DNA from: a bacterium
GTDB taxonomy: Bacteria > Sysuimicrobiota > Sysuimicrobiia > Sysuimicrobiales > Humicultoraceae
DNA length: 41,588 nucleotides
NCBI GenBank assembly: GCA_041497675.1
Contig: JBGQGY010000015.1
Coordinates: 1-41,588 of the forward strand
Direction of reading: 5' to 3'
Shown: positions 853-28,527 of the stretch, piece by piece
Numbering within the stretch: the stretch's first letter is position 1
Layout of the letters: every line of letters starts with the position of its first letter
Notes under the pieces: generated by a model
What the model saw: only the letters and a program-made list of their open reading frames with translations
Database searches by the model: none
Told to the model about the DNA's origin: nothing
Position numbers and translations under genes: made by a program

Positions 853-1692
853 TCATGCCTCCGTGTGCGCGAACAACCGCCGCATGCTGTCCAGACCGCG
901 GGTCGCGACGACCGCGGGATCCTGGGCCCAGTACTCGGGTCGGAAGAGTTCGAGCGAGTAGGCGCCGCGGTACCCGATAGCCTGCAGACGCGTCACGAGT
1001 GGCGTGAGCGGGATCACGCCATCGCCGGGCATCAGACGCTGCGCGTCGGTCAGCGACGAGGGCTCGCCGGGTTCCGCGTCGTCTAGGTGCACCACAAAGA
1101 CCTGCGCGCCATCCAGCCCATCCAGATCTTCTATGCGGGACCCGCCCGCGTAGAAGTGAAACGCGTCGATCACCAGCCCCACCCGTGGATCGCCCGTCTC
1201 CTCGACGATCCCGCGGGCGGCGCGCAGCGTGTTGACCGCGCACCTGGGGAATCCGAGAAACTCAAACCCGACCTCGACCCCGTAGGGCCCCGCCACCGAT
1301 GCCAGGGCGCGGAGCGCGACCGTTGCCCGCATCCGCACGTGGCTGTCGGGGGTGCCTTCGGGAGGCAGGAAGCTCGGGACCGCGACGACATACGGCGCAC
1401 GCAGAGCCCGCGCCCACTCGCACAGGGTGCGCATGCGCGCCAACCGCGGTTCGAGATCGCGGGGCACGAGCGGCGTGGCGCCTTCCAGCGCATTGACACT
1501 CAGCGGCAGCACGTTCGCCGCGCGCAGGCGGCTACGAAGCGTCGCCATCGACCCGCCGGCCGCCAGGTAGTGCTCGATCTTGGTATCGCGCAACTCGAGG
1601 AACTGATACCCGGCCCCGGCGGCGACCCGGATGTCGGTCTCGAGGTCGGCCCCCTCACCCGTCGTAGCCCCGTTCAATCCAAAGCCCGGCAT
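853..1692 (-). CDS. Sugar phosphate isomerase/epimerase (AP endonuclease-2 TIM barrel; IolI inosose-isomerase-like)
   Basis: Probable start MPGFGLNGATT at 1692. Metal-binding motifs FEFLGF, IDAFHF, VHLDD, QRLMPGDG and SLELF. Coupled to a Gfo/Idh/MocA gene. Confidence 0.85.
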   Translation of the reverse strand: MPGFGLNGATTGEGADLETDIRVAAGAGYQFLELRDTKIEHYLAAGGSMATLRSRLRAANVLPLSVNALEGATPLVPRDLEPRLARMRTLCEWARALRAPYVVAVPSFLPPEGTPDSHVRMRATVALRALASVAGPYGVEVGFEFLGFPRCAVNTLRAARGIVEETGDPRVGLVIDAFHFYAGGSRIEDLDGLDGAQVFVVHLDDAEPGEPSSLTDAQRLMPGDGVIPLTPLVTRLQAIGYRGAYSLELFRPEYWAQDPAVVATRGLDSMRRLFAHTEA

Positions 1693-1701
1693 GAAGTCTG
1701 C

Positions 1702-1729
1702 CTTCTCCCGCGCCACACCCACCCCCTCC
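1702..1729 (-). promoter_or_regulatory. Putative sigmaH-like promoter GGAGGG-N18-GAAG, 9 nt before the isomerase ATG
   Basis: Fits the recurrent AGG-N18-GAA motif seen before many genes in this window. Confidence 0.4.
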
Positions 1730-1783
1730 TCAATCTCACGGCGTTCCCATAGAATCAAGAGGACACACGTTGGGAGGGCCATC

Positions 1784-2962
1784 GTGAAAGAGCTGGCCGC
1801 GAAACCGACCGACTACTACCAACTGGAAGAGTTGCTGACCGAAGACGAGCGCCTGGTCCGCGATACGGTCCGCCGCTTCGTGGACCGCGAAGTCCTGCCG
1901 CACATCGGCGGGTGGTGGCTGCGCGGCGAGTTTCCGAAGGCGTTGATCCCCGCGTTGGGCAACCTCGGGGTGCTCGGCGCCAACCTGCCAACGGAGTACG
2001 GCGCCGCCGGCGTGAACAGCATCGCCTACGGGTTGATCATGCAGGAACTCGATCGCGGCGATTCGGGGCTGCGGTCGTTTGCGTCGGTCCAGGGCGCGCT
2101 GGTCATGTACCCCATCTATTCGTACGGCAGCGAGGAGCAAAAACGGCGCTGGCTGCCGCGGCTCGCCCGTGGCGAGGCGGTTGGATGTTTTGGCCTGACG
2201 GAGCCGAGCGCCGGGTCCGATCCTGGCGCGATGCAGACCCGGGCGCGGCGGCGCGGCGACGGGTGGGAACTGTCGGGGACGAAGATGTGGATCACCAACG
2301 GTTCGATGGCCGACGTGGCGGTGATCTGGGCCAAGGACGACAAGGACGAGATCTGGGGCTTTCTGGTCGAGCGCGGCACGCCCGGGTTTTCGGCCAACAT
2401 TCTGCACACCAAGGCCAGCATGCGGGCCTCGGACACCACCGAGCTCGTGCTCGACGGCGTGAAGATCGACGGCGAGGCGCGGCTGCCGGGTGCGCAGGGG
2501 CTGCGCGCGGCGCTTGCGTGTCTCACGCAGGCCCGCTACGGCATCGCCTGGGGCGCGGTCGGCGCGGCCACGGCGTGTTTCGAAGAAGCGCTCGCCTACG
2601 CCCGCGAACGCATCTCGTTCGGCCGGCCGATCGCCGCCCGGCAGTTGATCCAGGAGCGTCTCGTCGACATGCTCAGCGAAATCACCAAGGCGCAACTGCT
2701 CGCCTACCGGCTCGGCCAGCTGAAAGACCAGGGAAAGATGCGGTACACGCACGTCTCGTTGGCCAAACGCAACAACGTGCGGGCGGCCCTGCAGATCGCG
2801 CGGTCCGCGCGGACGATCCTTGGCGGCGCGGGCATCACGCTGGAGCATCACGCCATGCGCCACGCCGCTAATCTCGAAACCGTGGACACCTATGAAGGCA
2901 CGTACGACATCCACACGCTGATTCTTGGACGAGACCTCACGGGTTTCGACGCGTTCAGTTAG
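1784..2962 (+). CDS. Acyl-CoA dehydrogenase, glutaryl-CoA dehydrogenase-like
   Basis: GTG start after GGGAGG. Motifs DSGLRSFASVQGALVMYPI, CFGLTEPSAGSDP, KMWITNG and TYEGT are typical of the GCDH clade. Confidence 0.9.
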   Translation: MKELAAKPTDYYQLEELLTEDERLVRDTVRRFVDREVLPHIGGWWLRGEFPKALIPALGNLGVLGANLPTEYGAAGVNSIAYGLIMQELDRGDSGLRSFASVQGALVMYPIYSYGSEEQKRRWLPRLARGEAVGCFGLTEPSAGSDPGAMQTRARRRGDGWELSGTKMWITNGSMADVAVIWAKDDKDEIWGFLVERGTPGFSANILHTKASMRASDTTELVLDGVKIDGEARLPGAQGLRAALACLTQARYGIAWGAVGAATACFEEALAYARERISFGRPIAARQLIQERLVDMLSEITKAQLLAYRLGQLKDQGKMRYTHVSLAKRNNVRAALQIARSARTILGGAGITLEHHAMRHAANLETVDTYEGTYDIHTLILGRDLTGFDAFS

Positions 2963-3588
2963 TCGGCGAGGAGCCGGTGTCGGCCGCTCGGCGCCCTGCT
3001 CGGCAGCGACAGTCCCGCATCCGGAATACAGTCGCGCGCGCTGAAGGCACCGACGCCGGTGATCGCGTTCACCTGCATGCGACCGGTCGCCGTCCCCAGC
3101 GCGCCAAAGGATGTCGTGAAGATCACCCGGGGACCATCGAGAGCGACCGTCGCGGTCCCCTGAAGGACGAGCGACGCGTCGAGGACGCTGTATGTACCAT
3201 CGATGTTGCGCACCGTGAGATCGATGAATCGATCGAGCCCCTGCCCGCCGCCGCAGGGAGCGATGAACCCTGTCCCCGTGGCGGCGTTCAAATCGGTATT
3301 GAAGCCGATGCCGCCGCTCAACTGGGACAGTGACGGCAAGAATCCCGGAGGCGGTAATGTCGGGTCGGGAACCGTCCAGAGCCGCACTTGAATGCTGGAC
3401 GTGCCGCGATCGGTCCGCAGCTCAACGGCGTCGAACGTCGGCGCAAAACCGGCGTCGCCCGTCGGATCAGTCGTCGTGCTGACGCCGGGGGCCGGCGGCG
3501 GCTCGCTCGTACCCGGTGGCAGCATCTGCCCGCAGGCAGCGGCGAGGACGGCGAACATGATTGTCCAGATGATGCGTCTGATCTCCAT
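2959..3588 (-). CDS. Hypothetical lipoprotein
   Basis: MEIRRIIWTIMFAVLAAA-C lipobox, Pro-rich linker, then a beta-rich body with two further Cys. The stop overlaps the acyl-CoA dehydrogenase stop. Confidence 0.7.
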   Translation of the reverse strand: MEIRRIIWTIMFAVLAAACGQMLPPGTSEPPPAPGVSTTTDPTGDAGFAPTFDAVELRTDRGTSSIQVRLWTVPDPTLPPPGFLPSLSQLSGGIGFNTDLNAATGTGFIAPCGGGQGLDRFIDLTVRNIDGTYSVLDASLVLQGTATVALDGPRVIFTTSFGALGTATGRMQVNAITGVGAFSARDCIPDAGLSLPSRAPSGRHRLLAD

Positions 3589-3630
3589 CGCGATGTCACC
3601 CACCAGCCTTCGAATTCGGCGCTGGATGAA

Positions 3631-3657
3631 TTACGAAGGGATCAATAAGGAGGTTCC
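3631..3657 (-). promoter_or_regulatory. Putative ECF-sigma promoter GGAACC-N16-CGTAA for the lipoprotein gene
   Basis: Minus strand reads GGAACC tccttattgatccctt CGTAAT, the classic ECF AAC/CGT arrangement. Confidence 0.5.
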
Positions 3658-3699
3658 GTGGGCGCGACGGTTTGCGGCAGAGCGGGATATCCCCAGAAA

Positions 3700-3731
3700 C
3701 AGAGGAACGGCGGTAGCCCGCCGCTCCTCTG
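3700..3731 (-). terminator. Intrinsic terminator hairpin of the microprotein unit
   Basis: CAGAGGAGCGGCGG-GCTA-CCGCCGTTCCTCTG followed by TTTCT. The 14-bp stem has one G-U pair that exists only on the minus strand (A-C mismatch on plus). Confidence 0.7.
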
Positions 3732-3749
3732 GGGGCAAGCGCAGGGCGG

Positions 3750-3785
3750 TTACTTGCCCTTCTTTTTCTTTGCCTTTTTCGCCAA
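3750..3785 (-). CDS. Lysine-rich 11-aa microprotein MAKKAKKKKGK
   Basis: TTG GCG AAA AAG GCA AAG AAA AAG AAG GGC AAG TAA. RBS AAGGAGG (3794-3800) lies 8 nt upstream. The ORF has its own promoter-like and terminator sequences. Confidence 0.6.
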   Translation of the reverse strand: MAKKAKKKKGK

Positions 3786-3846
3786 CGTCCTCGCCTCCTT
3801 CTCCTGGAAGATGGACGGCAGTGCAGAACTTGCCGTCCGTTTGTGT

Positions 3847-3874
3847 GTTCGCCACTACATATAGATTTTCCTTC
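3847..3874 (-). promoter_or_regulatory. sigmaH-like promoter GAAGGA-N18-GAAC of the microprotein unit
   Basis: GAAGGAAAATCTATATGTAGTGGCGAAC is the closest match in the window to the Bacillus sigmaH consensus (AGGAWW...GAAT). Confidence 0.6.
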
Positions 3875-3952
3875 TTTCCTAAACACAATTCCTAGCGGGT
3901 ACCGAACATGCGGGCAGGCCAGCGGGCAAAAACGTCAAATAGCTCCCTCAAG

Positions 3953-5860
3953 ATGACGCGCCTCATCCTGCTGGCGTGTGCCATTCTGCTGGCGGCGTCC
4001 GTTGCCGTGGCTCCGGCCCAACCGGCGGTCGCCGACATCCGGGGACACTGGGCCGAGGCTCGGATCGCCGATCTGGTGCAGCGTGGCATCATCGGGCTTG
4101 GGGCCGGCCGGCAGTTCCATCCGCGCGACTCGGTCGCTCGCGGACAGTTCATCGCATGGCTCCTCGCGGCGCGGGGGCTTCCCGTCGTTCGCATGGACCG
4201 CGCTCCCTTCACCGACCTCCCGCTCTCGAGCGAGTTCGCGGCCCCGGTCGAATCCGCCGTCATCTACGGCATCCTCCAGCCGGGCGGCGCGTTTCGCCCC
4301 GGCGCGCCGATCACGCGCGTCGACGCGCTCGTCTACACCGTGCGCGCCCTGGGGCACACGTTCGAGTCAGCGTACATGGCCAATGCCCGCGTCCCGTTCA
4401 GCGACGTCGAAGGATTGCCGCCGCTGGTACGCGGTGCGATCGCCGTCGCCGCGCTGAGCAATCCACCGCTGCTGCGGGAGCCGGCCTCCGACCGCCTACG
4501 CGCATCCGATCCGCTGTCGCGGGCGTCGGCGGCCAGCCTGCTCTGGGCCTACCTGCAGGGTGTCGAACACGGCATCACCCTGCGATTTGCGATCTCGCTG
4601 GGCACGGGGGAGACGTTGATCCTCGAGAAGCGCGGCACGCTGCGCCCACTCCCCGTGTGGCGGGTCCAGGTGGGCGTGTTCCAAGACGAAGACCGTGCCC
4701 GGCGCGCCGGCGACGGGATGCGCAGCCGCGGTCAACCGGTGTTCATCGAACAGGTCGATGATCTCTTCAAGGTCCGCCTCGGCAACTTTGCAACGCGCGA
4801 CGAAGCCGTCGCCTTCCAGCAGCAGCTGTCCGGCGAGGGCGTGTCCTCGATTCTCATCGTCACGCTGCGCGAGTACGAGTCGCTCAGCGGCCCGTTTTGG
4901 ATGGGCATGCTGCTCCTCGAACCGACGGCCGGGGTGCGGCTGCGTCCCGCGCTGGCGCGGGACAACGCCATCGGCCGCGAGCGGACCAGCGAGGCCGCCC
5001 GCCGCGCCGGGGCGGTGGCCGCGATCAACGGCGGGTTCTTCTCGAGCGCAGGCGACCCGCTGGGCTGCCTAATGATCGACGGCGAGCTCATCAGCGAACC
5101 GCTGCCAGGGCGCACCTGCGCAGGTCTGACCGATGACGGGAGCCTGCTCTTCGACACGCTCAAACTGGAGGCCACGGCATCGACCGAAAACGGGTCGCTG
5201 AGCATCGATGGGGTCAACCGGGACCGCAGCGCCAACGAGATCCTCCTCTACCGCCCGGTCTTCGGCCCGACCACACGGACGAACGTCTTTGGTCTGGAGG
5301 TCGTCGTCGCGGGGGACGTGGTGCAGCAGGTCACCGATGGACGAGGGAACAATGCGATTCCCCCGGGTGGCTACGTGCTCTCCGGACACGGGCGGGGACG
5401 CGAGGCGCTGCGGGCGGTGTTCAGACAGGGCGATCGCGTGACGCTTCGCGTGCGCCTGGTTCCTGAATCGGGCGACGCACGATGGGACACGGTGCGCCAC
5501 GTCATGGGCGGCGGACCACGACTGCTCACGAACGGGATCTACGTTGGTGGGGAAGGATTCCAGCCGCTGTTCGTAGACCGGCGCCACCCTCGAACCGCCA
5601 TCGGGAGGCTGGCGGACGGACGGATCATCCTGGTCGTGGTCGGTGGACGCCAGCCCTATCACAGCCTCGGGATGACCTTGCCCGAACTGGCGTTTACGCT
5701 GCGGCGGCTCGGTGTGACCGATGCGATGAACCTGGACGGCGGCGGGTCGTCCACGCTCGTCGTGCGCGGGGTGGTAATCAATCTGCCTTCGGATGAACTC
5801 GGCGAGCGGACGGTCAGCGATGTGGTCCTCGTGATCCCGCCGTCGAACGGAAACCCCTAA
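3953..5860 (+). CDS. Secreted S-layer-homology (SLH) + SPOR + phosphodiester glycosidase (NAGPA/DUF2233) protein
   Basis: Signal peptide MTRLILLACAILLAASVAVAPA. SLH repeats (DIRGHWA...FHPRDSVARGQF; FRPGAPITR). SPOR-like WRVQVGVFQDEDRA...FKVRLGNF. NAGPA motifs AINGGFF, GGGPRLL, RHPRTAIG and NLDGGGS. Confidence 0.85.
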   Translation: MTRLILLACAILLAASVAVAPAQPAVADIRGHWAEARIADLVQRGIIGLGAGRQFHPRDSVARGQFIAWLLAARGLPVVRMDRAPFTDLPLSSEFAAPVESAVIYGILQPGGAFRPGAPITRVDALVYTVRALGHTFESAYMANARVPFSDVEGLPPLVRGAIAVAALSNPPLLREPASDRLRASDPLSRASAASLLWAYLQGVEHGITLRFAISLGTGETLILEKRGTLRPLPVWRVQVGVFQDEDRARRAGDGMRSRGQPVFIEQVDDLFKVRLGNFATRDEAVAFQQQLSGEGVSSILIVTLREYESLSGPFWMGMLLLEPTAGVRLRPALARDNAIGRERTSEAARRAGAVAAINGGFFSSAGDPLGCLMIDGELISEPLPGRTCAGLTDDGSLLFDTLKLEATASTENGSLSIDGVNRDRSANEILLYRPVFGPTTRTNVFGLEVVVAGDVVQQVTDGRGNNAIPPGGYVLSGHGRGREALRAVFRQGDRVTLRVRLVPESGDARWDTVRHVMGGGPRLLTNGIYVGGEGFQPLFVDRRHPRTAIGRLADGRIILVVVGGRQPYHSLGMTLPELAFTLRRLGVTDAMNLDGGGSSTLVVRGVVINLPSDELGERTVSDVVLVIPPSNGNP

Positions 5861-5872
5861 AGACGCCGCGGC

Positions 5873-6472
5873 CTAGGCGCCTCGATCGAACGAGGCGAGA
5901 TCCTCCACCGTATCGATATCCGCCGAAATGCCCTCGGGAAGCGAGAGCGCCACGCCTTCCTTTGGATAGGTCTCGATCACGCTTCGAGCACCGCGGTCAC
6001 CCTCCAGCGTCAGCAGATCGAGAAACAGCGCCCGGTGAAAATACACCGGCGGACCCACGGTGTTGTGATAGGCCGACGCGACGATCCGCTTCCGATCGGC
6101 CGCCGCCACCTCGAGCAGGTGATCGATCACCTCAGGCGTGACGAAGGGCTGGTCGGCGAGCAGGATGACCACGCCGTCGGCGTCCGGTGGCACCGCCTCG
6201 ACACCGACCCGGATGCTCGAGCCCATGCCTTCTGCGGGGTCGGGGTTGTGGAGGATGCGGATGGGCAGCCCGTCGAGCAGCGGCTCGTACACGTCCGCGT
6301 TGGCGCCCAGCACCACGATGACGTCCCGGCACCGGGATGCCAACGCGGTCTGCACGGCACGCCGGACCATGGGGGTCCCGCGGATGGGCAGGGCCAGTTT
6401 CGGGCGTCCCATGCGCGTGCTGCCGCCGGCGGCAAGGACCACGGCGGCGACCTTCGGCTGGTCGCCCGTCAT
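5873..6472 (-). CDS. mocA: Molybdenum cofactor cytidylyltransferase (MocA family nucleotidyltransferase)
   Basis: VLAAGGSTRMGRPKL, GMGSSI, LADQP, GDRGAR and DIDT motifs. Last gene of the cox cluster. Confidence 0.85.
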   Translation of the reverse strand: MTGDQPKVAAVVLAAGGSTRMGRPKLALPIRGTPMVRRAVQTALASRCRDVIVVLGANADVYEPLLDGLPIRILHNPDPAEGMGSSIRVGVEAVPPDADGVVILLADQPFVTPEVIDHLLEVAAADRKRIVASAYHNTVGPPVYFHRALFLDLLTLEGDRGARSVIETYPKEGVALSLPEGISADIDTVEDLASFDRGA

Positions 6473-7593
6473 CCACCCTGCGCCTGGGTGTGGATTGGTC
6501 CGCCGCGAGCGCGCAGAAAGCCGCCCGCCCGGCCACGCGCCGTGGCCAGGATCTCGCCCAGGGCGGCCAGCGCGATCTCATCGGGGTCTTCACTGCCGAT
6601 ATCCAGACCCACCGGGCCAAAGATCTGCGCGCGGCGCTCGGGGGAGATCGCCACGCCTTCGCCGTCGAGCTCGCGCAAGATCTTCTCGGTGCGCGCGCGG
6701 GGGCCCAGCATCCCCAGATAGGCCGCCGGGGTCGGGAGGAACGCGCGCAGCAGGTCGCGGTCGTGGATGTAATTGTGGGTCATGATCAGCACGAACGTGT
6801 GCGGGTCGGTGGGTGCGGTCCGGCCGGCCTCGGGAAAGTCGGTTTTGACAAACCCCGCCGCACCCGGGAATCGCTCGTGATTCAGAAACGCCTCACGCCG
6901 GTCGACCACGAGCACACGCCAGCCCAACTGCGAGGCGAACCGTACCACGGGGATCGCATCGTGCCCCGCCCCGCACACCACCAGCCGCATCGGCGGGTGC
7001 ACGACTTCCGCGAACACGCGCACCTGGCCGCCCGGCGCCTTCACATCGTGGATCGCCGACCGGCGCTCACGCAGCGCCGCCTCGGCCAGACGCAGCAACT
7101 CGGCATCGACCGCCGCATCGCCGAGGCTGCCCTGGCGGCGACCGTCCGGCCAGATCACGGCCCGCCGCCCGGCAGGCACGCGGTCCGTCCCCTCGATCAC
7201 GGTGGCGATCACGACCGATTCGTCGCTGTCCAGCGCCACCCGCACCGCGCGCCAGATCAGGTCATCGGCGGAGGTGGGCTCGACGAAGACCTCGATCGCG
7301 CCGTTGCACCCGAGCCCCAGTCCCCAGACGGCATCGTCATCGGCGGTCAGGTCGTACATCATCAGCCGCGGGGCGCGCCGCTCCATGACCTCGCCCGCCA
7401 CGACGGCGACGTCGCCTTCCAGACACCCGCCGCTGATGTTCCCGGTCATTTGATCGGCCCTCGTGATCAGCAGCCGGGCGCCCGCGCGCCGGTACGTCGA
7501 CCCACGCACCCCGACAATGGTCGCCAACGCGGCGGCTTCGCCGCGCGCACCGGCGTCATCGACCGCCTTGAGGATGTCGCGGAGTTCCTTCAT
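6469..7593 (-). CDS. XdhC/CoxI family molybdoenzyme maturation factor
   Basis: LATIVGVRGSTYRRAGA, GNISGGCLE, GLGCNG, GAGHDA, MTHNY, GMLGPRAR and PVGLDIG motifs. Confidence 0.9.
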   Translation of the reverse strand: MKELRDILKAVDDAGARGEAAALATIVGVRGSTYRRAGARLLITRADQMTGNISGGCLEGDVAVVAGEVMERRAPRLMMYDLTADDDAVWGLGLGCNGAIEVFVEPTSADDLIWRAVRVALDSDESVVIATVIEGTDRVPAGRRAVIWPDGRRQGSLGDAAVDAELLRLAEAALRERRSAIHDVKAPGGQVRVFAEVVHPPMRLVVCGAGHDAIPVVRFASQLGWRVLVVDRREAFLNHERFPGAAGFVKTDFPEAGRTAPTDPHTFVLIMTHNYIHDRDLLRAFLPTPAAYLGMLGPRARTEKILRELDGEGVAISPERRAQIFGPVGLDIGSEDPDEIALAALGEILATARGRAGGFLRARGGPIHTQAQGG

Positions 7594-8786
7594 CGTGCGC
7601 GGCTCAGATACCGTTCGAGCCGCCGCAGGCTCTCGAGGTTGTGAGCCGGCGCAAAGACGTCGACGTAGGGCAGCGCGACCCGCATCCCCTGACAGATCGG
7701 TTCATAGCCCGGGCTGGCCAGCAACGGGTTCAACCAGATGACTTTGGCCGCGCGCCGATGCAGTTCGGCCATCGCCGTCTCGAGCAGGTCGACGTCGCCC
7801 GTGTCCCACCCGTCGCTGATGACGATGACCACGGTGCGGCCGTCGAGCACCTGCGTGCCGAACTCATCCAGAAACCGGCGCAGGCTGCGGCCGATCTTCG
7901 TCCCACCCGACCAGTCGGGGACGCGCTTGGCGACTTCGTCCAATGCGGCGCGGAGGTCATCGTGCGCCAGCGACCCGGTGATGCGCGACAACCCGGTGCT
8001 GAAGACGAACGTTTCGACGCGCGCCACCGCGTGCTGCAGCGCGTAAACAAACTGGATGAGAAAGCGGCTGTACAGGTCCATCGACCCGCTGACGTCGCAC
8101 AGGAGCACCACGCGGGTCTTTTGCAGCCTGCGCTCACGTTTGAGAATCTCGAGGATTTCGCCGCCACGGCGAAGGCTGTGGCGCATGGTGCGGCGCAGAT
8201 CGACGTAGTGACCGCGACGCGCCTGCCGCGTCCGCCGCGACAACCGTGTCGCGACCCGCCGCGCAATGGCTTGGACCAGCCGGGTGATCTCGTTCAGCTC
8301 GTCCGCGGTGAACGCGCTGAAGTCCTTGCGCGTCAGCGCCTCGGCCGGGCTGTAGGCCGGGACGCGCTCACCCTCGTCGGCGGATTCGCCCTCGTCCTGC
8401 CATTCGAGCAGGACTTTCTCCAGCGCCTGCTGGCCGTCGAGCGGTTCCTGACCGGGGCCCTGCGGCGGGCCGGCCTGCTGCCGCTCCTCTTCCTCCGGCC
8501 GCGCGCCCCAATACTCCCAGAACGCGGCGTCGAAGACACGCTGTGCGTCTTGACCCGACGCCAGCACCGCGCGCAGCGCGACGTACATGTCACGGCGGTC
8601 GGTCAGGTCGACGGCCTCAAGCGCACGCAGTCCGTCCGTCGCTTCTTGTGGGCCCAGCGAGAGACCCCGCCGGCGCAACAAACGGCAGAACCCGACGACG
8701 TTGGCGACGAGGTTCCCGTGACTGGGGCGGTCTACCGACGGGCCTGCAGCCGATCGGCGGCCCGCGCGATAGCGTCCTGGTTCCAT
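7590..8786 (-). CDS. coxE: VWA domain protein CoxE
   Basis: MIDAS motif CDVSGSM, plus FVFST, WSGGTKIG, ISDGWD and WLNPL. Follows the MoxR AAA+ gene. The exact start is uncertain (55-nt overlap with coxD). Confidence 0.88.
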   Translation of the reverse strand: MEPGRYRAGRRSAAGPSVDRPSHGNLVANVVGFCRLLRRRGLSLGPQEATDGLRALEAVDLTDRRDMYVALRAVLASGQDAQRVFDAAFWEYWGARPEEEERQQAGPPQGPGQEPLDGQQALEKVLLEWQDEGESADEGERVPAYSPAEALTRKDFSAFTADELNEITRLVQAIARRVATRLSRRTRQARRGHYVDLRRTMRHSLRRGGEILEILKRERRLQKTRVVLLCDVSGSMDLYSRFLIQFVYALQHAVARVETFVFSTGLSRITGSLAHDDLRAALDEVAKRVPDWSGGTKIGRSLRRFLDEFGTQVLDGRTVVIVISDGWDTGDVDLLETAMAELHRRAAKVIWLNPLLASPGYEPICQGMRVALPYVDVFAPAHNLESLRRLERYLSRAR

Positions 8787-9682
8787 GGCCGTCCTTCCCG
8801 TTCGAGCGCGGCGATGCTTTCAACGAGCTGGTCGAGCCACTGCGTGCGAATCGCTGTGGCGTCGTCCTGGTGTTTGAACAGTACGCCCAGCGTCTCTTCG
8901 ATGGCCTCGCGGTCGAGGTGATCGCGGTGGAGCGCCATCAACGCCGCGCTCCAGTCGAGCGTCTCGGCCACACCCGGCGTCTTCTCCAACCGCAACCGGC
9001 GGACGATCTGCATGAACGCTCCGATCTGTTCAGCCAGCCGCCCGTTCAGCCCGGGGACCTTACGGTGGACGATCTCCAATTCCTTGTCAAACGTCGGGTA
9101 GTCGATCCACAGATACAGACACCGGCGGCGCAGCGCGTCCCCGAGCTCGCGGGTGCGGTTGCTGGTCAGCACGACGTATGGCGTCGTCTTCGCCTTGATC
9201 GTCCCGATCTCGGGGATCGACACCTGAAAATCCGACAGCACTTCGAGCAGGAACGCTTCGAACTCAGCGTCGGCGCGGTCGATCTCGTCGACCAAGAGCA
9301 CCGGCGCCTGATCGCGCGTGATCGCGTAGAGCAGCGGCCGCTTCAGCAGGAAGGCGTCGCCGAAGATTTCGGCCTCACGCTCGGTCACCGATCGCTGACC
9401 GCCCTCCGACAGCCGGATGTGCAACAGTTGCTTCTGATAGTTCCACTCGTAGAGCGCGGTGGTGGCGTCGAGCCCCTCATAGCACTGCAGCCGGATCAAC
9501 TCCGTGTCCAGCGCCCGGGACATCACTTTGGCGACCTCGGTCTTCCCGACGCCGGCCGCGCCCTCGATCAGCAGTGGCTTGCGCAGCGTCACAGACAGGT
9601 AGACGCTCGTCGCGATGGCTCGGTCGGCGACGTAGCCTTGTCCGGCAAGCAACTGCTGGATGCGGACAATCTCAGGGTGCAT
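8732..9682 (-). CDS. coxD: MoxR-family AAA+ ATPase CoxD
   Basis: Walker A EGAAGVGKT, RLQCYEGLD, YEWNY, Walker B LLVDEID, LTSNRTREL and ALRRRC. Confidence 0.92.
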   Translation of the reverse strand: MHPEIVRIQQLLAGQGYVADRAIATSVYLSVTLRKPLLIEGAAGVGKTEVAKVMSRALDTELIRLQCYEGLDATTALYEWNYQKQLLHIRLSEGGQRSVTEREAEIFGDAFLLKRPLLYAITRDQAPVLLVDEIDRADAEFEAFLLEVLSDFQVSIPEIGTIKAKTTPYVVLTSNRTRELGDALRRRCLYLWIDYPTFDKELEIVHRKVPGLNGRLAEQIGAFMQIVRRLRLEKTPGVAETLDWSAALMALHRDHLDREAIEETLGVLFKHQDDATAIRTQWLDQLVESIAALEREGRPWNQDAIARAADRLQARR

Positions 9683-9710
9683 GCATCACTCCGTTGGTTC
9701 GGCGTGGAAA

Positions 9711-9735
9711 CGGGGGATGGCGCGGCCATCCCCCG
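9711..9735 (-). terminator. 11-bp GC hairpin in the coxG-coxD intergenic region (terminator or attenuator-like)
   Basis: CGGGGGATGGC-CGC-GCCATCCCCCG followed by TTTCC on the minus strand. Confidence 0.5.
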
Positions 9736-9755
9736 CCGGTCCCTCTATCCCTCTT

Positions 9756-9784
9756 AGTGTAAACGAAATGGCGCCGGACGGTAA
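9756..9784 (-). promoter_or_regulatory. Putative sigma70-type internal promoter for coxD (TTACCG-N17-TACACT)
   Basis: Good -10 hexamer, 17-bp spacer, weak -35. Confidence 0.4.
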
Positions 9785-9794
9785 TCCGGCAGGA

Positions 9795-10241
9795 TCAGGC
9801 CTCGACCTGGGCCTTTAGGCACTCGAACAGCTCACCGGCCTTCTTCTCGACCGTGCTGTTGAGCACCCTCCCACCAATGCTGGCGATGGGCCCGCTGACG
9901 ACCACGTCGGCCTTCCACTCGAGCCAGGTCTTCCCGTCTGCCCCGTCGACCAGATCGACGACGCTGCTGACGTCGACCGCGCTTCCCAACCCGCCGCCCC
10001 GGCCGGTGAGGACGGCGTGGGTCGGGGGTCGTAGATCGGACATCGTGACGTCGAACGCGAAGTTGCCCTTGATGAACCCCACACCCACGCGAACGACGGC
10101 CCTGAACTTCCCCTCTTCCAGGATGTCGAGCTTCTGGACGTCCGGGAGGCACTTGCTGACGGCCTGCGGATCAATGAGCACCCCCCACACCTTCTCTTTG
10201 GACGCCCGGACTTCCATGCGTCCTTCGAAGCGGAGGGCCAT
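9795..10241 (-). CDS. coxG: Carbon monoxide dehydrogenase subunit G (SRPBCC family)
   Basis: 148 aa with KVWGVLIDPQAVSKCLP, VGVGFIKG and VSGPIASIGGR. Located inside the cox cluster. Confidence 0.85.
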   Translation of the reverse strand: MALRFEGRMEVRASKEKVWGVLIDPQAVSKCLPDVQKLDILEEGKFRAVVRVGVGFIKGNFAFDVTMSDLRPPTHAVLTGRGGGLGSAVDVSSVVDLVDGADGKTWLEWKADVVVSGPIASIGGRVLNSTVEKKAGELFECLKAQVEA

Positions 10242-10242
10242 G

Positions 10243-11226
10243 CTATGCGCCGACCTTGAGGTATTGGGCGGGTTCGCGCTCGAATGCCTGCCGGCAGTGC
10301 GCGCAGCAGAAGTAGAACGTCCTACCCTGATACACGAACGTGTGGCGGGCCGTGGCGATCTCGACGGTCATCCCACACACCGGATCGATCGCGCCGACCG
10401 CGACGGGTGACGCCGCGAGCGACTCGGCCTGAGCCGACACCACGGCGCCGGTCGCCGTCTGGCTCCGGCGCACCTGCACGATCTCGGCCATGATGCTGAG
10501 GGCGATCTCCTCAGGCGTGATCGCGCCGATATCGAGTCCCGCCGGCGCCTTGACCCGCCGGAGCTGCGCGGGATCGATCCCGCGACCGCTCAAGAAGGTC
10601 AACACGGACTCGGCCCGTTTGCGGCTGGCGACGAGACCGACGTAGCCGGCACCGGCGCCGGCGATCTGCTCGAGCGCCTCTTCGTCGTAGTTGCCCATCG
10701 TCGCCACGACCACGTAGGTTGTCAGGGTAACCTGCCGCGCGAGTTGCGCGAGCGGCAGACGCAGGTCGAAGTCGATATCCGGCGACGCAGCGCCTGTGGC
10801 GGCGACCCAGACAGCGAATCCCTGAAGCCGCCCCAACCGCGCCAGGGCCGGCACGAGCGGGGCTTCCCCGACGAGGAGCAGCTGCGGTTTGGGCAACATG
10901 GGCTCGACGTAGATCTCCAGGGTCCCGCCGCTGTGACAGGTCATGGGGTGGTGGATCACTCCCTCCCGGTCGGTCCGCGCGTCGCGCTCGGGGCTCAAAC
11001 TAATCAGACGAGGGCTCCCTTGGCGTAAGGCGTTCTGGGCCTCGCGAACAATTATGGGATGAGCGCAGGAACCCCCGACCCACCCCTCCAGCGTGCCGTC
11101 GGCCAGAATAATCGCCTTCATCCCCGGCCTGGCCGAGGCCGGCCGCTCGACCCTGATCACCGTCGCCAGGACGAACGGTTCGCCCCTCGCCTTCAGGGCA
11201 TGTGCGCGGTCCAGCAGGTCATTCAT
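10243..11226 (-). CDS. XdhC/CoxF-like maturation protein with C-terminal YHS (TRASH-like metal-binding) domain
   Basis: Start MNDLL at 11226. [31 protein letters not shown] and PAGLDIGA motifs. The C-terminus reads DPVCGM...[14 protein letters not shown]. Confidence 0.88.
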
Positions 11227-11246
11227 GACGCGTCGTCCATGGCTCG

Positions 11247-13595
11247 CTACTCGGTCACGCCCTTTGCCCGCAGCGCCTTCCACACCTTCCACGGCGTGAT
11301 CGGGATATCGATATGCCGGACACCGAGGTGCCACAAGGCATCAACCACGGCATTGGCGATCGCCGCGGGCGCGCCCACGGTGGCCGACTCCCCGACACCC
11401 TTGGCCCCCAGCGGATGATGTGGGGACGGCGTCGTGGTCTTGTCCAGTTCCCAGCGCGGCGTTTCCATCGCCGTCGGCAGCAGATAGTCCATGAAACTGC
11501 CACCGCGGATGTTGCCGTCTTCGTCGTAGGTGATCTCTTCGTAAAGCGCGGGCGCCAACCCCATCGTGAGACCACCGTGGATCTGCCCGTCGACGATCAT
11601 GGGATTGATGATGTTGCCGCAGTCGTCGACGGCCACGAACCGGCGGATCTTCACCTCACCGGTGCCCTTGTCGATATCGACGACGCAGATGTAGCTGCCG
11701 AAGGGGAAGGTCAGGTTCGGTGGATCGTAGTACGAGACCGCCTCGAGTCCGGCCTCCAGCCCCTGCGGGTGGTTGGTGTACGCGGCGAAGGCGATTTCCT
11801 GGATCGTCTTGACGCGTTGCGGGGACCCTTTTACGAAGAACTTCCCGCGCTCCCATTCGAGGTCGGTTTCGCTGGCTTCCAGTAGGTGGGCCGCGATCTT
11901 TCGCGCCTTGTCCCGGATCTTGCGCGCGGCCATGGCGCCGGCCGCCCCCGCGACAGGGGTGCTGCGGCTCGCATAGGTACCGAGCCCGTATGGCGCGGTG
12001 TCGGTGTCGCCTTCCTCGACGGCGATATCGTCTTCAGGGATTCCGAGTTCGTGCGCGATGATCTGCGCGTACGTCGTCTCGTGACCCTGTCCCTGGGATT
12101 TGGTGCCAAACCGGGCGATCACTTTGCCCGTCGGGTGCACGCGGATCTCGGCGCTGTCAAACATCTTCAACCCGAGGATGTCGAACGTGTGCGACGGGCC
12201 GGCCCCGACGATCTCGGTAAAGCTCGAAATGCCGATGCCCATCAACTCGCCGCGCTTGCGCTTCTCAGCCTGCTCCTTGCGCAGCGCCGCGTAGCCGATC
12301 TTGTCCATCGCCTTCTTGAGCGCCGCCTGGTAGTTGCCGCTGTCGTAGGTCCACCCCAGAGCCGACTTGTACGGAAAGGCCTCGGGCCGGATGAAGTTTT
12401 TCATCCGGAAATCGGCCGGATCCACGCCGAGCTCGTGCGCCAGGATGTCGGCCATCCGCTCGATCATGTACGAGGCCTCGGTCACCCGGAATGAGCAGCG
12501 GTACGCGATGCCTCCCGGCGGCTTGTTGGTGTAGACGCCGTCCACTTCGGCAAACGCCGACTGGAAATCATACGAGCCGGTGCAGATCGAAAAGAGCCCG
12601 GCGGGGAACTTGGACGGGTTGGCGGCCGCATCGAACGCCCCGTGGTCGGCGAGCGTCTTCACGCGGAGGGCCGTCATGGTCCCATCCTTCTTGGCCGCCA
12701 GTTCGGCGGTGATATGGTAGTCGCGGGCAAACGAATCGGCCTGCATGTTCTCCATGCGGTCCTCGATCCACTTGACCGGTTTGCCGGTGAGGACCGATGC
12801 CGCCACCGCGAGCACATAGCCCGGGTAGACGGGGACTTTCCCGCCGAACCCCCCGCCGATGTCCGGTGAGATCACGCGGATCTTGTGTTCGGCCAGACCC
12901 AAATGCCCGGCGACCAGAGCGATGACGGTGCGGATCGCGTGCGGAGCCTGTGTCGTCATCCAGAGGGTCAGTTTGCCGTCCACGGGATCCCACTGGGCGA
13001 TGCAGCCGCACGTCTCGATCGACGAGACGTGGATGCGAGGAATGTACATATCCTGCTTGATCGTGACATCCGCGCCTTGGAACGCTTTATCTGTGGCCGC
13101 CTGGTCCCCCACCTGCCAGTGCCAGATGTGGTTGTTCTTTTGTTCGCGATCCTGGCGCAGGACCGGCGCGCCGGGCTCGAGCGCCTTCTTCGGATCGACC
13201 ACCACGGGCAACGGTTCGTACTCCACTTCGACTGCTGCCATGCCATCGGCGGCAAGATACCGCTCGGTCGCCAGCACCGCGGCCACTTCTTGCGATTGAT
13301 ACAGGACGGTGTCGATCGGCAGCACCATCTGCTTGTCGGACATGAGCGTGGGCATCCAGGCGAGGCCGTACTTCTCCAGATCCTTACCCGTGATCACCGC
13401 CAGGACGCCGGGGATGGCCAACGCCTTCTCGGCGCGGATCGCCTTGATCGTCGCGTGCGCATACGGGCTGCGCACGATGTCGAGGTAGAGCATCCCGGAC
13501 AGCTTGATGTCGTCGATATAGGTCCCCTTGCCCCGAATGAATCGCGCGTCTTCTTTGCGCTTGACCGAGTGCCCCATCCCATACGCAATCGCCAT
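11247..13595 (-). CDS. coxL: Aerobic carbon monoxide dehydrogenase large subunit, form I (Mo-Cu)
   Basis: Start [10 protein letters not shown] after a GGAG RBS. Form I active-site loop AYRCSFR at 12486-12506. Also [24 protein letters not shown] and GAKGVGE. Confidence 0.96.
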
Positions 13596-13600
13596 CGCGA

Positions 13601-14098
13601 TCAGCTCCTTCCCCCGGCTGCCGCCGGCTGGCTGCGCAACTTCTCCGCGGCATACTTGACCGCCTCGACGATGTTCACATACCCGGTGCACCGGCAGAGG
13701 TTGCCGGAGATCGCCCAGCGGATCTCCTCTTCCGACGGGTTGGGGTTCCGCGCGAGGAGGGCGCAGCTGGTTATCATCATGCCCGGCGTGCAGAACCCGC
13801 ACTGCAGGCCGTGCTTTTCATGAAAGCCTTCCTGGATAGGGTGGAGCTGCCCGTCCTTCGCCAGCCCCTCGACCGTCATCAGGGTCCGGCCGTCCGCCTG
13901 CACGGCGAAGATCGTGCAGGATTTCACGGGCCGGCCATCCATGAGCACGGTGCAGGCGCCGCAGTTTGTGGTGTCGCACCCGATGTGGGTGCCGGTCAGA
14001 TTGAGGACCTCCCTGAGGAGATGCACCAGGAGGAGGCGCGCCTCGACGTCAGCCTCGTGGACGGTGCCGTTGATCGTCACGCGAATCTTGTGCGCCAT
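13601..14098 (-). CDS. coxS: CO dehydrogenase small (2x[2Fe-2S]) subunit
   Basis: [10 protein letters not shown]...[10 protein letters not shown] and NLCRCTGY motifs. Confidence 0.95.
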
Positions 14099-14103
14099 GT
14101 CCC

Positions 14104-14973
14104 TCACCCCCTGGCCCGCTGGAGGGCCCGCTTGAGTGCCCGAGCGGTGAGCACCCTCACGATGTCACGTTTGTAATCCGCCGGACCGCGCAGATCGCTC
14201 ACCGGGTCGCACTCCTCAGACGCGGCTTTGGAGGCCTCGGCGATGGCCGCGTCGTCCGGCACCTTCCCACGAAGACGCGTCTCGGCGCGCTTCGCCCGCA
14301 GCGACGTCGCCCCGACGTTGCAGAGGCCGATGCCGACCTGTTCGCACTTGCCGCCGCCATCCAGGGTGACCTGGACGCCCACGGCTGCGATCGCAAAATC
14401 GCCGACCTTTCGCTCGAGTTTGAGATAGGCGCCGCTGCTCCGGGCAGCCGGCTGGGGCACGCGCACTTCGGTGAGGATCTCGTCGGCCTCCAACGCCGAC
14501 TGGAACGTGTCGACGACAAAGTCGTCGATGGCGATCACACGCTCTCCGCGAGGCCCGGTGGCCACGACGCTCGCCCGCGCCGCCAGCATGGCGGCTCCCC
14601 AATCACCTGCGGGATCAGCGTGCGCCAGCGAACCGCCCACCGTCCCCATGTTTCGCACGAGGGGGTCGGCGATGACCCTGGCCGCATCGGCCAGCAGCGG
14701 GTAGCGGCTATGGATGACGTCCGAGGTTTCGAGGTCGCTGTGTCGCGTCATCGCCCCGATCCGAAGGGCTCCATCCGCCTCCCGGATGTAGGCCAATCCC
14801 TGGATCCGGTTCAGATCGATCAGATAGCGCGGAGCGGCCAGCCTGAGTTTCATCAACGGGACCAGGCTGTGGCCGCCGGCCAGGGGTTTCGCCTCGGGTC
14901 CGTGGGTCTTGAGCAGGCCCACCGCCTCGGCGATGGTCTTGGGCGACAAATACTCAAACCCCGCTGGTATCAT
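14104..14973 (-). CDS. coxM: CO dehydrogenase medium (FAD) subunit
   Basis: Start [37 protein letters not shown] and KVGDFA motifs. Canonical M-S-L order. Confidence 0.93.
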
Positions 14974-15099
14974 CCCACCCCACCCCCTGTGCTTCAGTCT
15001 TCGTGGGGAAACGCGCACGCCAGTGTGAACCGCCTCGACAGCGGAGCGTAATCCACGAAGCCAAATAGCTCAAGCGTCTTGAGAAAGGAATGCTGGGTT

Positions 15100-15127
15100 G
15101 TTCTGTGGGGAGAACGGGCCTTCCTGC
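15100..15127 (-). promoter_or_regulatory. sigmaH-like promoter GCAGGA-N18-GAAC upstream of coxMSL
   Basis: Recurrent motif. It is followed by the palindrome CTCAAG-N3-CTTGAG (15069-15083) and a ~115-nt structured leader. Confidence 0.55.
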
Positions 15128-15150
15128 CCTGCTAGGTTCGCCCGGGTATG

Positions 15151-16029
15151 TCAGCGTCTCCGGGATTGCGCGCGTTCCCGGGCCGCCGCCACCGCGCGCA
15201 CTGTGAGCACGCGCGCCAGATGGCGCCGGTAGTCCGCGCTCGCGAAAATGTCGTCGTTCGGCTCGACCCCATCGGCCGCGGCGCCGGCGGCGCCGGCGAT
15301 GACATCGTCGGTCAGTTCGCGCCCCGTCAAGGCCTGCTCGACCTTCTTGCTGCGATACGGAACGGCGGCGACGCCTGTGATGCCGATTCGGGCATGCGTA
15401 CAGCGACCGTCAGCGTCGAGCGTGACGGCCGCTGCGACGCCGGCCAGCGCAAACCCCGACGCGGGGTTGGCCATCTTCATGTACGCGCACCCGCTACGCG
15501 GGGGCGCGGCCGGCACGATCACTTCCGTCAGCACCTCATCCGCCGCGGCGGCGGTGCTCATCAGACCCCGGAAAAACCCATCGATGGGAACGATGCGGCT
15601 GCCGCCGGGTTTCTGCAAGGACACCTCGGCGGCCAACGCCAGGAGCACCGCGGGATAATCTGCGGCGGGGTCCGCGTGCATCACGCTCCCACCAATGGTC
15701 CCGAGGTTGCGGACCTGGAGATCACCGATCACACCCGCCGTCTCCACGAGGACCGGCGCCGCACGCCGCACCGCCGGAGTCGATTCGATCATCCAGTACG
15801 TGGCGAGCGCGCCGATGTGCAGCCGCCCTTCGCGGAGACGGATCCGGCGCAGCGCGGCGATTCGCGTGATGTCGATGACGTGCGGCGGTGTCGCCACGCG
15901 TAACTTCATCATGGGCAGCAGGCTTTGCCCGCCGGCGATGATCTTCGCCTCGGCGCCGAGCGTGTGGAGTTGACGCAGCGCCGCCTGGAGCGTCTTCGGG
16001 CGATGATAGGTGAACGCGGCCGGGATCAT
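15151..16029 (-). CDS. Second CoxM-like FAD-binding molybdo-hydroxylase subunit
   Basis: MIPAAFTYHRP, AGGQSLLPMMKLR, VRNLGTIGGSVMHADP and DIFASADYR motifs. Confidence 0.9.
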   Translation of the reverse strand: MIPAAFTYHRPKTLQAALRQLHTLGAEAKIIAGGQSLLPMMKLRVATPPHVIDITRIAALRRIRLREGRLHIGALATYWMIESTPAVRRAAPVLVETAGVIGDLQVRNLGTIGGSVMHADPAADYPAVLLALAAEVSLQKPGGSRIVPIDGFFRGLMSTAAAADEVLTEVIVPAAPPRSGCAYMKMANPASGFALAGVAAAVTLDADGRCTHARIGITGVAAVPYRSKKVEQALTGRELTDDVIAGAAGAAADGVEPNDDIFASADYRRHLARVLTVRAVAAARERAQSRRR

Positions 16030-16469
16030 GTACGCTGACTCACCTCACGCTCGATGGCTTTGAAGAACTCACCCGCCAACTGCTTCGCCACGCCGCCGAA
16101 GAGCCGGTGACCGACGCTCATCAGCACGCCGGTGACCTGCGCATCGCCGACGTAAGACACTGTTGTCGAATCGCCGCCCGCGGCAAGCGTCAAGGCGCCG
16201 GTGGCCTTGATGGTTCCAGCGCGCCCGGTGCCCTCGATGATCAAGGTCATTTTTTCCGGCGGGGTCTGCTCCGTGATGCGCACCTTGCCCTGATATGATC
16301 CCTTCACGGGGCCGACGGCCAGCTCGATCAGGGCGTCAAAGGTGTTTGGACCCGTGGGCGTCAGCGACTTCAGACCCGGCGTGGCCCTGGCGAGCACGTC
16401 CGGGTCGTTGAGCGTGGCCCACACTTTCTCTCGCGGTGCGGGAATCACGTACTCGCCTTCGATTTTCAT
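16026..16469 (-). CDS. Second CoxG-like SRPBCC protein
   Basis: APREKVWATLNDPDVL, VGPVKG and GVLMSVGHRL motifs. AGGAGG RBS. ATGA overlap with the coxM-like gene. Confidence 0.85.
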   Translation of the reverse strand: MKIEGEYVIPAPREKVWATLNDPDVLARATPGLKSLTPTGPNTFDALIELAVGPVKGSYQGKVRITEQTPPEKMTLIIEGTGRAGTIKATGALTLAAGGDSTTVSYVGDAQVTGVLMSVGHRLFGGVAKQLAGEFFKAIEREVSQRT

Positions 16470-27755: not shown

Positions 27756-28424
27756 CTACAGGTTGGCGCCGAAGTGGAGGATCTCGAGCCGGTCCCCCGT
27801 GTCCTCGATCTGGTCCGAGATTTCAGTGAGCGTTTCGATGAACTGGTTGAGGTGGATCTTGTTCGCCAGGGACAGGTTCGACGTAAAGATCTGCCGCGTG
27901 AGCTTCCACTCGACGTCGTCGATCGTGGACTCGGTAATGCCCACCGTGGTCAGCCGCTCGCGAATGATCTTCTCGTCGGGCGACGAGAAGAACGTCGTCA
28001 CCGCGTCGTGCAGCGCCGCGTAGGCATCCTGTGTCAGCGCGAGGATCTGCTTCAGCGAGTCGCCGTACTCCCCCGGAATCTCCGGACGCTGGCCGAGGAG
28101 GAAGTCGCACGTCGTCTCAGCCATGTCTGCGATCATGTCCATCCGCTCGACGAAGTCGTGGATATCCGAGCGAAAGATGGGCAGGAACGCGCCCCGGTAC
28201 AGCAGGTCGTTGACCGAGCGCCGCATCTGGTCGGCCTCGGTCTCCAGGTGGTCGACGTTGATCGCGCCGGCTTTGGCTCCGTCCAGGCGACCGGCCAGGT
28301 AGTCGTGGAGCACGTCGCAGGTGCGCGCCACGCACTCGCCGACCTTGTCGAGATGCTGGAGGAGCAGCGCCCGGACTTCCTTCTCCCGCCCCTGGCCGAA
28401 CAGGAACTGCACCGCACGCGCCAT
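27756..28424 (-). CDS. DUF47 (TIGR00153) PhoU-like phosphate transport regulator
   Basis: LETEADQMRR...FLPIFRSDI...DMIADMAE, ESTIDDVE and ISDQIEDTGD motifs. ATG at 28424 follows GGAGGT; alternative start at 28433. Directly upstream of PiT. Confidence 0.9.
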   Translation of the reverse strand: MARAVQFLFGQGREKEVRALLLQHLDKVGECVARTCDVLHDYLAGRLDGAKAGAINVDHLETEADQMRRSVNDLLYRGAFLPIFRSDIHDFVERMDMIADMAETTCDFLLGQRPEIPGEYGDSLKQILALTQDAYAALHDAVTTFFSSPDEKIIRERLTTVGITESTIDDVEWKLTRQIFTSNLSLANKIHLNQFIETLTEISDQIEDTGDRLEILHFGANL

Positions 28425-28455
28425 CGAAGACACCTCCGAAAGGCCTCAAGGCCGT

Positions 28456-28515
28456 CTTCGTCGGCGGAGGCGTCCGGCCCTACCGGGGCAGGAGCGGATG
28501 CCGGGTCATTCGAAT
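28456..28515. promoter_or_regulatory. Divergent sigmaH-like promoters: GTAGGG-N18-GAAG (minus, 28456-28483) and GCAGGA-N18-GAAT (plus, 28488-28515)
   Basis: Recurrent motif. The plus-strand copy ends 12 nt before the SD-less ATG at 28528. Confidence 0.55.
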
Positions 28516-28527
28516 TCATGTTTCCTC

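Follow-up and report, generated by a model that had tools for sequence, protein, structure and literature searches.

We describe a conserved unit on the minus strand, at about 3890-3695, of a 41,588-nt stretch of bacterial DNA (the whole of which is called the window here: positions 1 to 41,588 of contig JBGQGY010000015.1, assembly GCA_041497675.1, from the phylum Sysuimicrobiota), where it lies between a divergent gene for a protein with SLH, SPOR and NAGPA domains and a lineage-specific lipoprotein gene. The patterns of conservation described below make it very probable that this unit is a real, independently transcribed and translated micro-gene. Our best overall explanation, to which we give a probability of roughly 0.5, is that the micro-gene is self-contained and that its product is a free polycationic peptide that would bind a polyanion. 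An earlier inspection of the same DNA, made without database searches (the sequence-only reading), had listed a promoter, two hairpins, a ribosome-binding site, a micro-open reading frame (micro-ORF) and a terminator, and each was recovered, base-exact, at its minus-strand position. From upstream to downstream, the parts of the unit are as follows.

3883..3890, minus strand: upstream box AATTGTGT, with TTGT invariant in 8/8 sequences, at which sequence conservation begins (alignment A2).
3874-3847, minus strand: promoter-like block GAAGGAAAATCTATATGTAGTGGCGAAC, also written GAAGGAAAAT...GGCGAAC, in which a near-palindromic CTATAT(R)T box separates the invariant AGGA and CGAAC.
3838-3813, minus strand: 5' hairpin GGACGGCA/TGCCGTCC, with a 6-bp core, GACGGC/GCCGUC, invariant in 8/8.
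3806..3810, minus strand: pentamer CUUCC, resembling an anti-Shine-Dalgarno sequence and a possible pairing partner for GGAGG in the ribosome-binding site.
3800-3794, minus strand: Shine-Dalgarno (SD) sequence AAGGAGG, followed after 8 nt by the TTG start codon at 3785-3783.
3785-3750, minus strand: micro-ORF from TTG to TAA, 36 nt and 12 codons, encoding MAKKAKKKKGK (7 Lys in 11 residues).
3733..3759, minus strand: stop hairpin GGGCAAG (3759-3753)/CTTGCCC (3739-3733), which encloses the TAA stop codon and has a 13-nt loop.
3695..3731, minus strand: intrinsic terminator with a 14-bp stem (3731-3700), loop GCUA, one G-U pair and the tail UUUCU (TTTCT).

The unit is more than a chance assembly of such elements. 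It occupies a trough in GC content (0.545-0.59, versus 0.65-0.73 in the flanks), and AAGGAGG occurs at only 2 sites in the 41.6-kb window, with both strands counted. Even with ≤3 mismatches allowed, the window has a single match to the promoter-like pattern, and 100 shuffles gave 0 matches; the RNA strand folds with −78.6 kcal/mol (z = −4.77; opposite strand, z = −3.24).

Related loci were reached through the neighbouring lipoprotein, for which 29 relatives were found in databases, the named ones labelled as Armatimonadota metagenome-assembled genomes (MAGs). An alignment of the window lipoprotein with 22 of these 29 (leaving out P0001, which is identical, and P0014, P0015, P0020, P0024, P0025 and P0029) was used for a genome scan, which returned 22 pattern matches; 7 were confirmed and gave seven loci (L001-L007), or eight sequences with the window. 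These loci come from MAGs labelled Armatimonadota or Candidatus (Ca.) Fervidifonticultor (Sysuimicrobiota/CSP1-3), the latter belonging to Ca. Sysuimicrobiota, formerly CSP1-3 (NCBI taxonomy; PMC11604079), an uncultivated phylum that is reported to be abundant in soils and hot springs (PMC11604079). The unit is present in the window and in 7/7 of the related loci fetched, in exactly one copy per source (matched by a regular expression as an SD, a start codon, a run of Ala, Lys and Gly codons and a stop), and no further copy turned up when the 111 kb examined was searched with an nhmmer profile built from the unit. When the eight sequences were aligned (alignment A3; 179 columns), conservation spanned AATTGTGT to the end of the T-run, and the alignment collapsed beyond both limits. 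Within the unit, nucleotide identity to the window sequence is 86-93%, and the neighbours in the five distant loci are less alike (78-80% for an acyl-CoA dehydrogenase gene, 66-68% for the lipoprotein gene).

Conservation within the unit follows the micro-ORF closely. The SD sequence is invariant in 7/7 columns, its distance from the start codon is 8-9 nt in 8/8 sequences, the start codon is GTG in seven sequences and TTG in the window only, and the stop codon is TAA or TAG. Eight ORF columns vary in alignment A3: seven are third positions, at which every change is synonymous, and the eighth is the T/G of the start codon, so that variable columns number 1/15, 0/15 and 7/15 at the three codon positions (hypergeometric P = 9 × 10−4). 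No amino-acid change separates the eight DNA sequences. Length variation respects the frame inside the ORF (lengths of 36, 42 and 45 nt; indels of 6 or 9 nt) and does not respect it directly upstream (indels of 1, 2, 4 and 6 nt) or directly downstream (1 nt). Five peptide forms were recovered from the eight DNA sequences and miscalled database ORFs (MAKKAKKKKGK, MAKKKAKKKGK, MAKKAKKAKKKGK, MAKKAKKAAKKKGK and MAKKAKKSSKKKGK); their ends are fixed (MAKK...KKKGK), their middle varies, and they hold 11-14 residues, with 7-8 Lys codons in 11-14 codons. A further 13 protein clusters of gene-caller miscalls (P0035-P0047) end in the same C-terminal peptide, and a profile search of 1.84 billion representatives gave eight matches, namely six true members and two false ones; P0048 and P0049 were rejected as members, being weak matches (E about 3 × 10−4) to unrelated repeat proteins. 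Together, these patterns support purifying selection on the micro-ORF frame. The sequence-only reading had proposed looking among relatives for a conserved ribosome-binding site, start and stop (kept in 8/8), for synonymous AAA/AAG exchange (all third-position changes in the ORF are silent), and for two outcomes that would count against it, loss of the frame or ribosome-binding site with the stems kept and a lack of any conservation; neither occurred.

Other ways of decoding the same codons were considered and set aside: a programmed −1 frameshift on G AAA AAG (L004, L005 and L007 have no AAA codon) and read-through of the stop codon (a 1-nt deletion right behind the stop breaks the frame in L002). 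At L003 426-470, an ATG stands one codon before the GTG, 5 nt past the SD, and the peptide there may be MVAKKAKKAKKKGK.

The terminator adds evidence at the level of RNA. All 14 pairs of its stem are 100% paired in the eight sequences, six of them with compensatory changes, and the eight G-U cells of the alignment would be A-C mismatches on the opposite strand, which fixes the strand; the sequence-only reading had made this strand call from the one G-U pair of the window's 14-bp stem, and the relatives bear it out. A T-run follows the stem on the minus (unit) strand only. In the window this run is short, so that a terminator scan called only the inner five pairs, and in L006 and L004 the scanner called a full 14-15-bp terminator with a CTTTTT tail. 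A terminator-like match on the opposite strand (AGGGCGGTTACTTGCCCT with TCTTTTTC) was discarded; it is the antisense of the Lys codons, and its stem is lost in L001 and L007 (read by eye). Covariation, which had been suggested as a check on the stems, is found in the terminator (the six compensatory pairs) and not in the two hairpins. The 5' hairpin, which probably lies at or near the 5' end of the RNA and whose arms are predicted to pair, has a loop that varies in length by 4 or 6 nt and no covariation. The stop hairpin is 100% paired in cells with letters (six pairs are the same throughout and the seventh carries a change to G-U in L003; L001, L002 and L007 differ in the loop). Because their cores are invariant or nearly so, both hairpins are neither supported nor contradicted by covariation.

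A second set of pairings would cover the SD. The five pairs of CUUCC/GGAGG are 100% paired in 8/8 sequences, and four of the five never vary. RNAalifold pairs the post-stop CCGCCCUGCGCUUGCCCC with the SD and the start codon, and CUUGCCCC has the SD region as an alternative partner. In the other arrangement, GGACGGUGG is a potential partner of the 5' hairpin's 3' arm, alongside CUUCC/GGAGG. Both SD-covering alternatives are 87-100% paired, without compensatory change, and they compete with the hairpins of the sequence-only reading. The predicted probability that the SD is unpaired, P(unpaired), is 0.01-0.23.

Whether the unit stands on its own was assessed from its neighbours, of which the following flank it in the window.

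3953 to 5860, plus strand: gene for the protein with SLH, SPOR and NAGPA domains (SLH-SPOR-NAGPA gene), with a signal peptide from the ATG at 3953 (start read by eye).
3632-3656, minus strand: GAAC-N17-CGTA, a promoter-like motif of the extracytoplasmic function (ECF) sigma type; the same motif is found in L001-L007.
3588..2959, minus strand: lipoprotein gene, with lipobox LAAAC-G and no Pfam family.

The lipoprotein gene directly follows the micro-gene on the same strand in 7/8 sequences; the other is L004, where a convergent methyltransferase gene and then an acyl-CoA dehydrogenase gene lie behind the unit (3991-5813, opposite strand) and place the lipoprotein gene 2.1 kb away, a local rearrangement. 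GAAC-N17-CGTA, which moved together with the lipoprotein gene in L004, precedes that gene in 8/8 sequences with a spacing of exactly 17 nt (background, 0.03 per 260 nt). These observations support the independence of the unit from the lipoprotein gene, as the sequence-only reading had proposed: L004 gives the direct case, and the conserved motif backs its suggestion that the lipoprotein gene has an ECF promoter of its own. The constant neighbour of the unit is the divergent SLH-SPOR-NAGPA gene, found in six of the seven loci over 95-100% of its length (the L003 contig ends there); in the five loci that allow the distance to be read, 122-185 nt separate its start from that of the micro-ORF.

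Two further alternatives concern where the gene begins and what it serves. One is that the real gene is longer (a 46-amino-acid in-frame ORF) or lies on the other strand (an antisense ORF, ...GGYLPFFLAAFFAFFATVLASF...), and it draws on a protein collection that holds nine in-frame and five antisense clusters of such ORFs, and on the antisense frame sharing third positions with the micro-ORF, such that most changes are silent or F/L there. Yet the 46-amino-acid ORF, which starts at the GTG of the conserved TTGTGT box and appears as a hypothetical protein in one NCBI MAG (P0036), has that start in frame in only 3/8 sequences (L004, L005 and L007); in-frame stops lie 39-108 nt upstream of the micro-ORF in the window, L001, L002 and L003, and the box GTG is out of frame in L006. 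Its extension varies at all codon positions, and reading-frame conservation is limited to its last 11-14 codons. In the antisense ORF, the frame is shifted in L002, L003 and L006 and interrupted by a stop in L001, and neither a start nor a stop nor an SD is conserved; we therefore regard both versions of this alternative as highly improbable. The other alternative, which the sequence-only reading had offered as a Lys-tRNA-sensing leader, is that a leader peptide senses lysine and thereby attenuates transcription of the lipoprotein gene. In its favour, a short ORF dominated by one codon family stands directly before an intrinsic terminator, with a same-strand gene downstream in 7/8 sequences. 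However, the arrangement in L004, where the next gene is convergent and two opposite-strand genes intervene, and the lipoprotein gene's own promoter-like motif past the terminator in 8/8 sequences together indicate that the unit is not a leader peptide; nor do the arms of the 14-bp stem take part in a conserved antiterminator or competing helix, and the downstream gene has neither a Pfam family nor a link to lysine. This option is rejected, and we give it the slimmest of chances.

The remaining alternatives accept the unit and assign its effect elsewhere. The RNA could be the main effector, as a dual-function or regulatory small RNA whose invariant CAUCUUCC/GGA-rich 5' part or structured 3' part acts on other mRNAs or proteins, with ribosome loading on the mini-ORF mainly stabilizing the RNA or enforcing termination, as with the mccA transcript. 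Untranslated region (UTR) segments conserved as strongly as the ORF fit this explanation, as do the mutually exclusive pairings that involve the SD (post-stop CCGCCCUGCGCUUGCCCC; the 3' arm of the 5' hairpin with GGACGGUGG) and the precedent of mccA itself, described in published accounts as a short, abundant, ribosome-stabilized transcript with a terminator just behind a 7-codon ORF. Amino acids that are kept while third positions drift, and indels of whole codons, would nevertheless be unexpected if ribosome occupancy alone mattered; compensatory changes are confined to the terminator helix, and no Rfam match was found in 3300-4300 (Rfam 15; eight sub-threshold matches, the best at 18.6 bits versus gathering scores of 42.5-100). 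We consider an RNA effector unlikely, though clearly the strongest of the competing explanations. Improbable, by our estimate, is that the peptide is a modified or exported precursor or substrate, either like a ribosomally synthesized and post-translationally modified peptide (RiPP) or acting on the anionic cell wall with the SLH-SPOR-NAGPA protein and the lipoprotein. The SLH-SPOR-NAGPA gene as constant divergent neighbour, the lipoprotein gene next in 7/8 sequences and the 7-residue mccA gene product, which is reported to serve as a substrate, are in keeping with it, but the conserved neighbourhood contains no modifying enzyme or transporter, the peptide has no signal peptide, and the synteny includes an unrelated acyl-CoA dehydrogenase gene and so may be inherited gene order.

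The explanation that we prefer, a self-contained micro-gene for a free polycationic peptide, would work as follows. The promoter-like block would drive an RNA of about 130-150 nt that opens with a GC-rich 5' hairpin; a consensus SD and a GTG/TTG start codon would direct translation of an 11-14-residue peptide with the fixed ends MAKK...KKKGK; and the RNA would end at the strong intrinsic terminator. With its net charge of about +7 to +8, the free polycationic peptide would most likely bind a polyanion, with ribosomal RNA as the preferred target, much as for the tiny basic ribosomal proteins bS22/eL41, bL37 and Thx, and DNA second. Binding to a nucleic-acid polyanion is about an even bet, and a peptide bound to the ribosome is fairly unlikely. 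With an SD that CUUCC or the post-stop CUUGCCCC can cover, the invariant 5' UTR probably limits translation or feeds back on it. The most far-reaching version, in which the unit is the smallest stand-alone conserved bacterial protein gene working as such, its 11-14-residue oligolysine is a ribosome- or nucleoid-bound counter-ion, and its mRNA senses free peptide through the SD-covering 5' UTR, is speculative and in our judgement unlikely to hold in full.

Several points weigh against this explanation. The genomic context (a cell-envelope protein, a lipoprotein and an acyl-CoA dehydrogenase) has no link to translation; the DNA evidence all comes from eight related sequences of one lineage; and the transcript ends and actual translation are predicted from the sequence. 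The SD and start codon are predicted to be mostly paired (P(unpaired) = 0.01-0.47). Parts of the UTR are as invariant as the ORF (H1 arms, 12/12; SD, 7/7; CUUGCCC(C), 6/8), and thus an RNA-level function is also under selection. The third-position signal is common to one antisense frame (YLPFFLAAFFAFFA), which tolerates most changes, so that the codon-position test by itself fixes neither strand nor frame. The peptide is of low complexity, and its length of 11-14 amino acids is about half that of the shortest known ribosomal protein (24-25 amino acids). In the literature on peptide strings, lysine-rich bacterial microproteins and the smallest ribosomal proteins, we found nothing like the unit.

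The identity of the promoter, which the sequence-only reading labelled sigmaH-like, was considered separately. The sigmaH consensus is RNAGGAWWW, 11-12 nt and RNNGAAT, and the window, compared by eye, offers GAAGGAAAA, 12 nt and GGCGAAC, with C replacing the final T. AGGA and CGAAC (both invariant in 8/8) fit this sigmaH-like pattern, which leaves the invariant upstream TTGT and the largely conserved, AT-rich CTATAT box between AGGA and CGAAC unexplained; a scan for the sigma-70 consensus gave no match in the window, L006 or L004. The box AATTGTGT could be a −35-like element (TTGTGT), an UP element or an operator. The near-palindromic box at 3855-3864 on the minus strand reads CTATATGTAG in the window and CTATATATAG in L007, and, together with the TTGT in AATTGTGT, could serve as an operator or belong to divergent promoters that the unit and the SLH-SPOR-NAGPA gene have in common.

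Database annotations over the unit are of two kinds. The 46-amino-acid calls (L005, about 4034-4174; P0035-P0047) represent the micro-ORF with an upstream extension that runs across its SD, 5' hairpin and promoter-like block, and one JGI entry of this extended ORF is named 'uncharacterized protein YuzE'; such annotations look like mis-annotations. A hydrophobic ORF antisense to the unit (...GGYLPFFFFAFFANVLASF...; window 3658-3864, plus strand; five database clusters, P0030-P0034) owes its open frame there to the purine-rich sense strand, and the plus-strand AAGGAGG at 3647-3653 before the 68-amino-acid antisense ORF was dismissed as a ribosome-binding site, as it is not kept even in L001. The remark in the sequence-only reading that the ORF lies below gene-caller cut-offs is accurate for the window, whereas in some relatives gene callers produced the spurious 46-amino-acid in-frame extension. 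Gene callers ignore ORFs of this size, and the calls that were made here (the 46-amino-acid extension or the antisense ORF) are wrong.

The rest of the window holds mostly clusters of the molybdenum-hydroxylase/CO-dehydrogenase type, transporters and acyl-CoA enzymes. Two molybdenum-hydroxylase gene sets (CO-dehydrogenase/xanthine-dehydrogenase type) lie at 5873-16469 and 28321-32362, with duplicated accessory genes (two for CoxG, two for XdhC/CoxI and three for the FAD-binding subunit, plus CoxE-like VWA and AAA proteins). For the acyl-CoA dehydrogenase gene (1631-2962, plus strand), the first ATG gives 443 amino acids, versus 392 in several loci, and the true start in the window probably lies about 50 codons further in.

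Compared with known systems, the unit shares parts of its design with several. Attenuator leader peptides (trpL, hisL and pheL) have 11-16 codons, a run of codons for one amino acid, a strong SD and a terminator close by; the micro-ORF likewise has a Lys codon run, a strong SD and a nearby terminator, but it lacks a conserved antiterminator, in L004 no gene behind it depends on it, and the downstream gene has its own promoter-like motif and no relation to lysine. Dual-function small RNAs with a small ORF (SgrS/SgrT, RNAIII/hld and SR1/SR1P) resemble it as short structured RNAs with their own promoter and terminator, a small ORF and conserved non-coding parts, although the micro-ORF is much shorter and no base-pairing target is known. 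Mycobacterial HupB and chlamydial Hc1 carry Lys/Ala-rich 'AKKA' DNA-binding tails, similar to histone H1, which the peptide matches in composition and in the AKKAKKAAKK pattern; unlike those tails, which belong to larger folded proteins, the motif here is the whole product of the micro-gene. If the peptide were a free counter-ion of nucleic acids, it would amount to a genetically encoded polyamine analogue.

Like mccA, the 7-codon gene of microcin C, for which the available accounts describe stabilization by ribosome binding and a terminator right behind the ORF of a short, abundant transcript, the micro-gene has few codons and an intrinsic terminator close behind. However, mccA is the first gene of an operon with its own modifying enzyme, whereas the micro-gene has no MccB-like neighbour, its peptide ends in Lys rather than Asn, and behind its terminator stands an independently promoted or a convergent gene. 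Whole-codon indels, silent third-position drift, a fixed SD, start and stop, and a covarying terminator make the micro-gene a well-founded candidate for a place among the shortest protein genes that stand alone, leader peptides and mccA set aside.

Thx (bTHX) is counted among the tiny basic ribosomal proteins. Others of this group (bS22, bL37 with 24 amino acids and eL41 with 24 residues) are described as tiny, very basic and unannotated, with GUG starts and near-total conservation; bS22 is reported to be 61% K/R, and bS22/eL41 and bL37 to fill rRNA pockets, and for the Borrelia bL38 density no gene has been found. The micro-ORF resembles bS22/eL41 and bL37 in that Lys makes up 64% of its residues, its start codon is GTG or TTG, it is not annotated in the window, and its amino-acid sequence does not change among the eight DNA sequences. 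In contrast to the known tiny ribosomal proteins, which have at least 24 amino acids and are helical, its peptide has 11-14 amino acids and its gene lies away from translation genes. If the peptide were ribosome-bound, it would be a micro ribosomal protein half as large as eL41/bL37, would extend the set of tiny basic ribosomal proteins found only by cryo-electron microscopy, and would hint at where to seek the genes behind unassigned densities such as bL38.

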